DNA of 64,000 nucleotides, taken from NCBI RefSeq assembly GCF_009931435.1, contig NZ_CP043414.1; one strand, written 5' to 3'. The notes beneath the pieces were generated by a model, which did no database searches, was not told the origin of the DNA, and saw only the letters and a program-made list of their open reading frames with translations. This stretch comes from Escherichia coli (GTDB taxonomy: Bacteria; Pseudomonadota; Gammaproteobacteria; Enterobacterales; Enterobacteriaceae). Both the position numbers and the translations under genes were made by a program. Every line of letters starts with the position of its first letter. Position 1 is the first letter of the stretch. Below are positions 51,641 through 54,146 of the stretch, in pieces.

Positions 51641-53143
51641 TTAAACCGTTTCATCAAGGAAATACTTAGACGAATCATCCTGTTTCGGTTGATATGTTTT
51701 TTTTGCAGAATTAAGAACTCTTCTTAGTTCTTTTCTTAACTCAGGTAAACGCTCCTGAAGAGGGTTAGAACACCATTGTGAAGGCAACCCTCTTATAATA
51801 GCTTCGGAACAAAGCGGTGAAATAAGTTTTTCCATTTGATAATAGAAAGTTTTTGCTCGACTTACACGCATTGTGATCCTTTTTATTACATCTCTTTCAG
51901 ACTCAATTCTAGCACTCAGATCTCTTAATCTACTCCATACCTTAGCATCAGCAATATATGTATCATAAAGCATACACTCTATAAACGTGAAATTACTAAT
52001 AAGTTCTTTTGCAATATACCCCCCCAGCCGAGAAGGAATGAAACTTGATGAAGCTGTTGGATCTCCGTGATTTACGGTGAACAAAAACCTTTTATTGCAT
52101 AAATCAACGAGAACTCGATGCGTGAAAGAGTCACCTATACCAATTAACCTTAACTTTTCAGTTATTACCGAACCATCGATTTGTCTGAATCCGGGATCGC
52201 TTGCATACGAAACGATAACATTAAGAATGTACAGCCTCAATAATTGCATTTGTGTCACAGCTAAATTCGAATCAAACGGGTTCGCAATAGTCGACGTTGA
52301 CTCGCTATAAGTCAACTCAGTACCCAGTAATATAGCTCTAAATGCCTCATGACGTGGAAGAAGATATCTTCCTTGTTCTCTGAAAATTTGTACTGCTTTA
52401 CCTGGACTCGTATACCCTCTTTCTAAGAACTCACGAGTCATACGTAATGCTAATCGAACATCATCCGTAGCAAGAACTTCAATACGTGTTCCAATCTCAC
52501 TTCCCAGCACAGACCCACTAATAATATCGACTAATTGTGATATATCATCCAATACAACTTTAGCGCCATTTTCTGCAATAAAATTTCCACTTTTATTACT
52601 TGTCATATACTTTACTAGTGCAAAGCGTTTTGCAATCACACTACTTATTCTCGGTGGATCTATTTGTATAACTTCAAAATCGAAAGCATCTATAGCAGGT
52701 GAGTTTTTATGTTTGATAAATGTAGACTGCCTCAATGAAAGTACTAAATTTAATGAAAGCGCTCTGGAAATTGAAAATGACTCGGTAAATATCCGGGACT
52801 GGATATCATCAAACTCGATCTGATCAACGTTATCAATAACAAGAAAAAAAGATGTCTCTTTTGTAACACGACTTATTATTTTATCAACATAAGGTTTTAT
52901 CTTTTTATATTGTTCATATAAAAAATCCGAGATTCTGGTATTTTTTTGATCCTCACTCAATAAAAAAAGAGGTCCTGATTTTATCGCCTCAATATCTTCT
53001 CGAAATGCATCAAATACAAAATCCTTATTACTCAAAACAGGATGCTTATTGATATATTCCAGAATTGATTTATAAATAAAATCGACTATTGAACTTTCTG
53101 ATGGATTATCTAGAAAGTCTATATGAACCCAATGCGGCGTCAA
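51641..53143 (-). CDS. C-terminal part of a frameshift-split nuclease-NTPase gene (Walker B and helical/winged-helix-like region)
   Basis: 500 aa ORF whose track start is TTG; contains Walker B-like SFFLVIDNVDQ but no Walker A. A single-base deletion in the (A)8 run 53161-53168 joins it in frame to the upstream ORF. Confidence 0.6.
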   Translation of the reverse strand: MTPHWVHIDFLDNPSESSIVDFIYKSILEYINKHPVLSNKDFVFDAFREDIEAIKSGPLFLLSEDQKNTRISDFLYEQYKKIKPYVDKIISRVTKETSFFLVIDNVDQIEFDDIQSRIFTESFSISRALSLNLVLSLRQSTFIKHKNSPAIDAFDFEVIQIDPPRISSVIAKRFALVKYMTSNKSGNFIAENGAKVVLDDISQLVDIISGSVLGSEIGTRIEVLATDDVRLALRMTREFLERGYTSPGKAVQIFREQGRYLLPRHEAFRAILLGTELTYSESTSTIANPFDSNLAVTQMQLLRLYILNVIVSYASDPGFRQIDGSVITEKLRLIGIGDSFTHRVLVDLCNKRFLFTVNHGDPTASSSFIPSRLGGYIAKELISNFTFIECMLYDTYIADAKVWSRLRDLSARIESERDVIKRITMRVSRAKTFYYQMEKLISPLCSEAIIRGLPSQWCSNPLQERLPELRKELRRVLNSAKKTYQPKQDDSSKYFLDETV

Positions 53144-53147
53144 GATA

Positions 53148-54146
53148 TCACATTGATTTGAAAAAAAACTCTTTTATTCTAACCTTTCTCATGTAATGAA
53201 GAAATGTTGTTTTACCTGCACCTACAGTCCCAAGTAACAAGATCGCGAGAGGTTTGTCATTCCTGACTTTTATTTTTTTCTTCCCTTTAACCTGAAACTT
53301 ATCAACTATTCTTTTTGTATCTTTATCATTAAGCCCTTTTAGTACTTCACCATTCAGCACACTTGAACGCCTACCTATATTCATTCTAATTTTACTATCG
53401 AATCTCATAGTTTCTGGTGTTGAAACATAACATTTATCAAAGGAGTCTTCATCCAAGTAAAGTATAGAATCAGAAAAAGCCAACCTTAATTCATCAGCAA
53501 TCAAATGATATATTGGATTATTTGTCTGTGTTCTGTTTTGTTGCGAATAAAAATTTCTTAATTTTCTAAATTCTATTTGATTTTCGACGCGACCTAAAAG
53601 TGCTGTTTCTAGACTTCCTGATATAACATTTTCACGACTAAGTAAATCATAGAATTCTTGATAATTATCATTTAAGCAATCTTCTAACGACCAGAACACA
53701 AGCGCTATTGAATCATTAAATTTGACATTGTCATGCCTCTGAGCTGCAAAACATGCCCATACATTTCCATTCGTAGCGACAGCATAATCTATACCAAATT
53801 TCCTGGCGTAATCTCTAGCTTGTATTATCGCTTCACCAAGATCACTTTGTAAAAAACTATTACTTAGCTTTATTTTTCTTTTTCCTGGAATTGTACTAAA
53901 GCTTGGCCCTGCCTTTTTAGCTTCAACAACAAGAGCAATATTAGCTGTTTTTAGTATATAATCAGCATAAGTTGTCAAACCATCTTCAGTCACATGCTCT
54001 TCTGGTTTTATATCACTATCAGTCCACATCAAGACTTCCTTTAATACCCGATCTATCACTTTTAGTCTTGTGGCTGCTTCATTTGCATTTTCTAATTGTA
54101 AATGATGATAAGCTGATAATATTTCCGAAATAAATGTTTTCTCCAT
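53148..54146 (-). CDS. N-terminal part of the same split gene: HsdR-N/Mrr-like PD-(D/E)xK nuclease domain ending in a Walker A motif
   Basis: 332 aa; ADYILKTANIALVVEAKK fits the (D)...(E)xK nuclease core; LAILLLGTVGAGKTTFLHYM Walker A lies 14 residues before the stop, so the NTPase domain is truncated in this frame. Confidence 0.6.
   Translation of the reverse strand: MEKTFISEILSAYHHLQLENANEAATRLKVIDRVLKEVLMWTDSDIKPEEHVTEDGLTTYADYILKTANIALVVEAKKAGPSFSTIPGKRKIKLSNSFLQSDLGEAIIQARDYARKFGIDYAVATNGNVWACFAAQRHDNVKFNDSIALVFWSLEDCLNDNYQEFYDLLSRENVISGSLETALLGRVENQIEFRKLRNFYSQQNRTQTNNPIYHLIADELRLAFSDSILYLDEDSFDKCYVSTPETMRFDSKIRMNIGRRSSVLNGEVLKGLNDKDTKRIVDKFQVKGKKKIKVRNDKPLAILLLGTVGAGKTTFLHYMRKVRIKEFFFKSM

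Follow-up and report, generated by a model that had tools for sequence, protein, structure and literature searches.

The antiphage system closest to the subject of this report is DS-14, which was described in the DefensePredictor study (Science 2026, PMC13092281) under the working name RMOR and consists of a single protein of 816 amino acids (aa), WP_040091717.1, from Escherichia coli (ECOR assembly GCF_003333475.1). We located this protein by a peptide search of the supplements of that article, in which Table S6 gives DS-14 as a one-gene construct of the category "Remote defense homolog" with the entry "defensive = TRUE", Table S7 reports log10 protection of 4.7 against phage Bas50, 3.7 against Candy and 1.1 against RB69, and Table S8 includes it as a replicated hit protein. 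The domains assigned to DS-14 by HHpred in the latter table are a PDDEXK nuclease (residues 27-167, with D65 and 76-78) and an AAA+ ATPase/ORC1 domain (residues 270-569); in addition, a remote link to bNACHT09 was obtained with a probability of 99 and a coverage of 54% (PMC13092281). DS-14 is absent from the main text, so that no mechanism has been proposed for it. Here we describe a relative of DS-14 encoded in a 64,000-nucleotide (nt) stretch of the E. coli contig NZ_CP043414.1 (NCBI RefSeq assembly GCF_009931435.1), hereinafter the window, where the gene occupies positions 51641-54146 on the minus strand and is split by a frameshift. We consider it very probable that this gene is a recently inactivated defense allele of the DS-14 family, carried as AT-rich cargo of a lambdoid prophage.

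The other described systems that share parts of this architecture are nuclease-bearing NTPases (nucleoside triphosphatases) of the Avs and bNACHT kinds, the HsdR subunits of Type I restriction systems, and the defense NTPases BrxC (BREX) and RdrA (RADAR). Among these, bNACHT25 carries an Mrr-like restriction endonuclease (REase) effector and becomes toxic when NACHT-activating mutations are introduced, and bNACHT proteins that combine REase effectors with short C-terminal domains exist as well (10.1101/2022.07.19.500537). The protein bNACHT09, to which DS-14 was linked, is not named in the bNACHT preprint (10.1101/2022.07.19.500537).

A frameshifted gene of the DS-14 family

The gene is covered by two open reading frames (ORFs) that lie on the same strand, 4 nt apart, with the following layout.

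51641..54146, minus strand: whole gene for an 834-aa nuclease-NTPase, present as a frameshifted allele; its product equals WP_001349602.1 once one base is taken out
53148..54146, minus strand: upstream fragment ORF, 332 aa (WP_250696197.1; ORF list, RefSeq), with the nuclease domain, the linker and Walker A, followed by three out-of-frame codons and a stop
51641..53143, minus strand: downstream fragment ORF, 500 aa, TTG start (WP_250696198.1; ORF list, RefSeq), encoding what is left of the NTPase, including Walker B and the sensor Arg, and then the lid, the winged helix and the helices of the C-terminus
53161..53168, minus strand: homopolymer tract in which the +1 frameshift occurred; the coding strand has T8 (A8 on the plus strand), compared with T7 (codons F327 F328 S329) in the intact allele

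Around the tract, the plus strand reads GATTTG(A)8CTCTTTT and the coding strand ...AAA GAG TTTTTTTT CAA ATC AATG TGA. Deletion of one T from the tract yields an uninterrupted frame of 834 codons that reads ..KEFFSNQCDILTPHWVH.. and whose translation is 100% identical to WP_001349602.1, the product of an intact single coding sequence (CDS) in other genomes. The slip from T7 to T8 at codons 327-329, 14 codons past Walker A, interrupts the chain within the NTPase core. The original prediction, made from the letters of the window, had described one gene split by a change of frame, which removal of one base from the (A)8 run at 53161-53168 would restore to an ORF of approximately 834 aa; the restored ORF has exactly that length. 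The nuclease core quoted there, ADYILKTANIALVVEAKK, is present and contains D62, E75 and K77; the quoted Walker A motif, GTVGAGKTTFLHYM, is found at residues 306-319, with the break of the frame 14 codons later; and the Walker B-like FFLVIDNVDQ lies, as stated, in the downstream ORF (residues 433-442). The AT-rich island to which the gene had been assigned is likewise evident from a GC content of 0.32-0.36 across positions 51000-54500, compared with 0.51 for the whole window. Although every factual statement of the prediction is correct, its designation of the gene as an undescribed defense gene no longer holds, because DS-14, a 47%-identical paralog with the same architecture and a replicated single-gene defense hit, has been validated as a single-gene antiphage system.

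The relationship to DS-14 was established through the database protein P0089, which matches the published DS-14 sequence at all but 1 of the 399 residues shown. The repaired window protein and P0089 (E value of 3e-239 in the protein database search) are 47% identical over 820 residues with 11 gaps (749 bits), and on sequence comparison the repaired protein is a member of the DS-14 family that falls into a different subfamily (<50% identity). The two proteins belong to the same length class (816 and 834 aa), and each is the product of a single gene and combines a PD-(D/E)xK nuclease with an ORC-like AAA+/P-loop NTPase and a helical C-terminus. Both genes, moreover, occupy the same prophage slot beside a lambdoid DUF977 gene. 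They differ in that the DS-14 gene resides in a Rac-like prophage and on the opposite strand, that the window copy is frameshifted, and that phage data are available only for the DS-14 subfamily. Thus, among the traits of the DS-14 family, homology, the D...ExK nuclease, the ORC-like P-loop NTPase and the lack of a conserved partner are all found at this locus, and an intact frame is not. A role of the intact protein in antiphage defense, which had been proposed from the architecture, is credible by analogy with DS-14, which protects against phages on its own.

Domain architecture and conserved residues

An AlphaFold2 model of the repaired protein was built on 61 homologs and reached a mean predicted local distance difference test (pLDDT) score of 81.7 and a predicted template modeling (TM) score of 0.77. 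The model, together with the conserved motifs, delineates the following regions.

53637..54146, minus strand: N-terminal PD-(D/E)xK nuclease domain, residues ~1-170, an alpha/beta domain in the model
53961-53963, minus strand: D62 of the nuclease motif
53916-53924, minus strand: E75-x-K77 of the nuclease motif
53808-53822, minus strand: QxxxY of the nuclease motif (Q109-Y113)
53259..53636, minus strand: helical linker that ends in a probably disordered stretch, residues 255-296 (AlphaFold2 pLDDT <50)
52586..53258, minus strand: P-loop NTPase core, alpha/beta, residues ~297-520, which contains the frameshift
53205-53231, minus strand: Walker A, GTVGAGKTT
52820-52846, minus strand: extended Walker B, FLVIDNVDQ
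52730-52732, minus strand: sensor-like R472
51956..52585, minus strand: lid/helical region and winged-helix-like module, residues ~521-730
51644..51955, minus strand: long C-terminal helices, residues ~731-820 (H734-749, H753-784 and H800-818 in the model), and a disordered tail; no repeat sensor

Conservation was assessed in an alignment of 101 sequences comprising the query, the DS-14-like paralog and 99 distant representatives (760-1000 aa) with identity down to about 25%. By its sequence motifs, the N-terminal nuclease is of the HsdR-N/RecB type of the PD-(D/E)xK superfamily, with E23, D62, E75-x-K77 and Q109xxxY113; D62, E75, K77 and Q109 are present in 101 of the 101 sequences, E23 and Y113 in 100, and R27 in 100-101. 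The QxxxY motif is typical of RecB-family and HsdR nucleases. In the NTPase, the Walker A glycines G306, G309 and G311 are conserved in 100-101 of the sequences and are followed by the invariant K312 and by Thr or Ser at position 313; D438, N439 and D441 of the Walker B region are present throughout (101/101), R472 in 98, and R507 and R564 in 100 each.

The structure prediction for the 834-aa protein, which had been suggested as a check, returned an N-terminal alpha/beta domain and a P-loop core, and the model and the conserved motifs support the proposed NTPase with a helical region after it, the middle part being a P-loop protein of the STAND/ORC/KAP kind. The profile searches that had also been suggested found no family above threshold, and the only matches in scans of the repaired protein against PADLOC v2.0.0, NCBIfam and Pfam were sub-threshold ones, among them to P-loop and HSDR_N_2 models. 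When the 61 homologs were scanned individually with Pfam (E ≤ 0.001), 24 matched AAA_16, 17 matched KAP and none matched NACHT; at E ≤ 0.1, NACHT (PF05729) was recovered in 6 of the 61. The top matches in the fold search were Cdc6/ORC DNA-binding initiators, TnsC and BrxC, not NLRs, and a fold search of AFDB50 produced full-length matches (TM score up to 0.89) annotated as KAP NTPase, Orc1-like AAA or HsdR-N. Sequence searches of PDB, seeded either with the single protein or with the 61-sequence profile, retrieved only P-loop noise, namely G-alpha and IF2. The D-N-x-D-Q extension of Walker B and the arginine after beta-4 are, as we take it, nearer to the NACHT/KAP pattern (D-G-x-D-E, TSR) than to that of ORC (hhhhDE). 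In view of the Pfam scans and the Walker B/sensor pattern, we denote the NTPase NACHT/KAP/ORC-like and refrain from a finer label.

Comparison with the other defense proteins shows differences from each of them. With HsdR it shares the N-terminal nuclease domain, but according to both Pfam and the fold search it lacks the superfamily 2 (SF2) helicase motor, in place of which there is a P-loop switch-type NTPase, and no HsdM/HsdS, methyltransferase or specificity gene is found near the window gene. BrxC and RdrA are, like this protein, ORC/KAP-like defense NTPases; however, they lack a nuclease and function within multi-gene systems, whereas here the effector is fused to the NTPase and the gene stands alone. 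In contrast to bNACHT25, bNACHT09 and the nuclease-bearing Avs proteins, Pfam NACHT stays below threshold in all 61 of the 61 family members, and, unlike in the bNACHT and Avs proteins, the best folds are of the ORC/Cdc6 type rather than NLRs. Of the resemblance to STAND/Avs-like proteins noted in the original prediction, the part that concerns Avs is only loose, given that PADLOC-DB v2.0.0 yields no Avs match (only two weak, unrelated matches) and that the model has no large C-terminal repeat sensor (TPR-like, ≥400 aa) but, after the lid and the winged-helix module, only long helices of about 100 residues in total, without repeats.

The homologs form a large family. A word-indexed protein search produced 396 matches. 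The best 120 of them, at 45-93% identity, are in their great majority single chains of 810-880 aa, and the few that are shorter are truncated entries; the hosts of the matches listed include Klebsiella, Serratia, Enterobacter, Aeromonas, Pseudomonas, Cupriavidus and Vibrio. An exhaustive search of 50%-identity representatives retrieved 1,280 clusters at E ≤ 1e-3, of which 254 reached E ≤ 1e-30, mostly collinear proteins of ~800-870 aa with 25-45% identity. The 99 distant relatives included in the alignment are single chains too, so that neither among these nor among the best 120 of the 396 matches is the protein typically encoded as two separate genes, an arrangement that the original prediction had named as evidence against a split gene. 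PHROG 14719 (unknown function) matches the protein from end to end, and a tblastn search of 50,697 phage records with the protein gave no match. A full-text literature search for WP_001349602 returned no result, and the family is not mentioned in the domain-centric paper (NAR 2026).

Nature of the frameshift

The break parts Walker A from Walker B and R472, and neither fragment can therefore form the NTPase; given this position within the core, the T8 allele is most likely null. A megablast search of 5,426 complete E. coli genomes with positions 51400-54400 of the window detected the locus in 7, in each case with at least 99.6% identity, and the tract is T7 ((A)7 on the plus strand) in all 7. 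Six of these genomes encode a single intact CDS of 2505 nt, annotated "hypothetical protein" (WP_001349602.1 or WP_112869014.1). The seventh is strain H7 (NZ_CP010171.1; locus stretch L003, 4255-7535), whose gene is broken by IS1A, an independent route of inactivation. Compared with strain MS 119-7 over 51400-54400, the window contains the extra T and one synonymous C-to-T change at 52868, and nothing else; the lesion is accordingly young, given that apart from it a single synonymous change sets the allele off from the common intact one. Among database contigs, the intact protein is found on 335, the 332-aa fragment on 2, and the 500-aa fragment on 5-8.

Length changes at the tract are not confined to the window. 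The T8 allele, with the identical private synonymous single-nucleotide polymorphism (SNP) at 52868, is present in a second assembly, the Logan assembly of SRR7527707; five more samples, which represent at least three SNP backgrounds, have T6 at the same tract; and in one additional sample the C directly after the tract is lost. These three observations indicate that the indels at the tract are real and recurrent. The intact gene also contains five other runs of 7 and one A8 run, and exact-sequence look-up of the predicted products revealed frameshift alleles at three of these other runs.

Window 52962-52968: T7 run at nt 1178 of the gene, -1 allele, product of 395 aa (WP_251990794.1)
Window 52941-52947: A7 run at nt 1199, +1 allele, product of 410 aa
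Window 52844-52850: T7 run at nt 1296, -1 allele, product of 464 aa; the run overlaps the region coding for Walker B

The (A)8 run of the coding strand lies near the 3' end of the gene, at window 51697-51704, where a slip would alter just the last ~20 residues, which are modeled with low confidence and are probably disordered. The 398-aa cluster member P0125, which is found on 58 contigs and was examined as a candidate common truncation, was rejected as a gene-calling artifact at contig ends.

For the split of the gene, the original prediction had left open a pseudogene, a sequencing error and phase variation, and of these the first is favored by the data above. The T8 allele would have arisen by ordinary replication slippage in a gene that is unusually rich in A/T runs. 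Several considerations nevertheless weigh against reading the locus as an inactivated DS-14-family defense gene. Slippage of the transcription or translation machinery on U8 could possibly restore the frame at a low level, and a miscall common to two assemblies of the same data is formally possible. The functional data come exclusively from the 47%-identical paralog and are found in supplementary tables (PMC13092281). Furthermore, the repaired protein stays below threshold for all Pfam, NCBIfam and PADLOC models, and its NTPase has no clean STAND, KAP or ORC assignment.

An alternative that we regard as improbable is that the genome actually carries (A)7 and an intact gene, the extra base being a homopolymer miscall introduced by sequencing or assembly. 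Such an artifact would be compatible with a difference of a single base in a homopolymer of 8 nt, with the otherwise perfect state of the allele, and with the preponderance of contigs encoding the intact protein over those with either fragment. It is at odds with the occurrence of T8 together with the private C-to-T change at 52868 in the separate Logan assembly, although the latter possibly derives from the same source data, and with the T6 alleles in five samples on at least three backgrounds and the frameshifts at other runs, which imply that genuine slippage at this gene is common.

A programmed switch appears slightly less plausible still. Under this scenario, the tract would alternate between T7, T8 and T6 and thereby turn a costly prophage-encoded defense nuclease on and off within the population, with slippage on U8 perhaps restoring low expression. 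The repeated length polymorphism at one tract on different backgrounds is what such a switch would produce, the absence of secondary damage from the shifted allele is predicted for a reversible state, and defense nucleases can be costly. The tract, however, is short, and it is only one among the runs of 7 and 8 in the gene, three of which have frameshift alleles of their own; 76% of composition-matched shuffles contain a run of at least 7 A/T; the closest orthologs from Klebsiella, Serratia and Enterobacter lack the tract altogether (KEIFS instead of KEFFS); and the off alleles are rare, being found on a handful of contigs, compared with 335 for the intact protein. Phase variation thus finds no specific support, and scattered loss of function by slippage, possibly favored by the cost of the nuclease, fits the data better than a dedicated contingency tract.

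Finally, a natural two-gene system with separately encoded nuclease and NTPase subunits, which the two adjacent ORFs on the same strand, 4 nt apart, might suggest, can be dismissed almost with certainty, because a 1-nt indel at the junction is all that sets the gene apart from intact alleles that are otherwise identical, the break falls inside the NTPase fold, 14 codons past Walker A, and the full-length homologs (the matches listed, the distant relatives and those in AFDB50) are all encoded as one chain.

Genomic context

The frameshifted gene lies in a cargo island of a Qin-like lambdoid prophage, with the following neighbors.

50970..54850, no strand assigned: AT-rich cargo island of a lambdoid (Qin-like) prophage, with a GC content of 0.32-0.36, flanked by the hok/sok locus on one side and the DUF977/replication genes on the other
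51618..51637, minus strand: terminator-like hairpin that begins 4 nt past the stop codon of the defense gene (consensus scan only; the T-tail is weak)
50638-50850, minus strand: hokD ORF (ORF list)
50788-50962: sok antitoxin RNA, full-length Rfam match (RF01794, 105 bits)
50243-50470, minus strand: small ORF upstream of the Doc gene, a possible antitoxin
49739-50233, minus strand: gene for a toxin of the Doc (death-on-curing) family (TIGR01550, E 1.6e-37)
54857-55345 and 55296-56114, minus strand: two overlapping ORFs upstream of the defense gene, 162 and 272 aa

The terminator-like hairpin suggests that the defense gene forms its own transcription unit. A promoter scan found 17 sites, compared with 15 ± 3.6 in shuffled sequence, and because this count shows no excess we do not claim a promoter. 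In the Qin prophage of E. coli K-12 the gene order is ydfU-rem-hokD-relE-relB, with relE directly after hokD, and the homology of the window to K-12 Qin ends at window 50807, immediately upstream of hokD. The earlier placement of the gene in the position that relBE occupies in Qin-like prophages is therefore right. The prophage of strain MS 119-7, although otherwise collinear, lacks the segment 49670-50551, which lies across hokD from the defense gene and for this reason looks like a second cargo insertion. Past position 55288, collinearity with MS 119-7 is lost and only short similar patches are seen. For the 162- and 272-aa ORFs no NCBIfam match was found; the region 54868-55640 is 89% identical to the DUF977/DUF1627 region of the prophage that carries DS-14. 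In that prophage, a Rac-like one, the DS-14 paralog (E. coli GCA_028108325.1; L015, 8001-10451) adjoins the homologous DUF977 gene on the opposite strand. The use of the same slot in opposite orientations suggests independent capture of the two genes at one cargo hotspot.

Further relatives are found in other settings. A 59%-identical homolog of Pseudomonas aeruginosa (GCA_047288295.1; L017, 6875-10511) is located at the end of a Pf-type filamentous prophage (Zot, coat B) and is preceded by two small ORFs of 97 and 231 aa on the same strand, an arrangement that recurs in two further loci (L018 and L019). A 63%-identical homolog of Aeromonas (GCA_029479985.1; L020, 8001-10526) stands alone between thrABC and a type VI secretion cluster, and its 8-kb flanks contain no genes of mobile elements. 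The neighbors vary among the E. coli, Pseudomonas and Aeromonas contexts examined, and no methyltransferase or conserved partner accompanies the relatives in these contexts, in line with the description of the window gene as a lone AT-rich cargo gene of a prophage.

Possible mechanism of the intact protein

The intact protein may act as a gated effector, in the manner assumed for Avs, bNACHT25 and other REase-bearing STAND proteins. In its resting state the NTP-bound switch would be auto-inhibited, with the NTPase module holding the nuclease off; a phage-derived cue would then drive NTP-dependent oligomerization; and oligomerization would gather the nuclease domains and lead to the cutting of DNA, either that of the phage or all DNA in the cell, which would amount to abortive infection.

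Alternatively, the intact protein might be an ORC/Cdc6-like DNA binder, that is, a single-chain, NTP-dependent Type IV-like restriction enzyme in which the AAA+/winged-helix part recognizes modified bases, replication intermediates or ends of phage DNA and thereby targets the HsdR-type nuclease to it. We view this as a possible but less likely mode of action. It would account for the prevalence of Cdc6/ORC initiators, TnsC and BrxC, rather than NLRs, among the best folds, for the ORC1 assignment of DS-14 by HHpred (PMC13092281) and for the combination of an HsdR/RecB-type nuclease bearing QxxxY with the lack of a nearby methyltransferase in the contexts examined; in addition, the model predicts a winged-helix module with only ~100 residues beyond it, which appears too small for a sensor of the Avs type. 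Against it stand the HHpred link of DS-14 to bNACHT09, with a probability of 99 (PMC13092281), and the existence of bNACHT proteins with short C-termini and REase effectors (10.1101/2022.07.19.500537). R472, after beta-4, also resembles the sensor arginine of STAND proteins, and the narrow phage range of DS-14 suits a specific trigger equally well. The D-N-x-D-Q Walker B presumably resembles the D-G-x-D-E of NACHT/KAP rather than the hhhhDE of ORC. Bas50, the phage against which DS-14 is most protective, is by the BASEL numbering presumably a myovirus of the Vequintavirinae. On balance, we would give the oligomerizing switch about an even chance and direct DNA sensing a distinctly smaller one, and leave the rest to neither.

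More speculatively, and in our estimate rather doubtfully, the DS-14 family could represent a mechanistically new kind of immune nuclease, in which an ORC/Cdc6-like switch would respond not to a phage protein but to phage DNA itself, in the form of a structure or a replication intermediate, and would license the fused HsdR-type nuclease; the repeated frameshifts in homopolymers would in that case result from selection against autoimmune cleavage of the host or prophage chromosome.

Implications

The DS-14 family is large, with 254 clusters (50% identity, E ≤ 1e-30) from many phyla and a conserved architecture, and has no family model in PADLOC v2.0.0, NCBIfam or Pfam, its sole functional record being the supplementary-table entry DS-14. 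The locus described here adds a second, divergent subfamily in E. coli, and both E. coli subfamilies use the same lambdoid cargo slot, the place of relBE in Qin. A motif map of the family is now available (E23, D62, E75, K77, QxxxY, K312, D438/D441 and R472). In the source genome, the locus should be annotated as a frameshifted pseudogene of a defense gene rather than as two hypothetical proteins. Natural populations repeatedly lose this gene, by slippage and by insertion of IS elements (insertion sequences), which hints at a fitness cost of carrying it.

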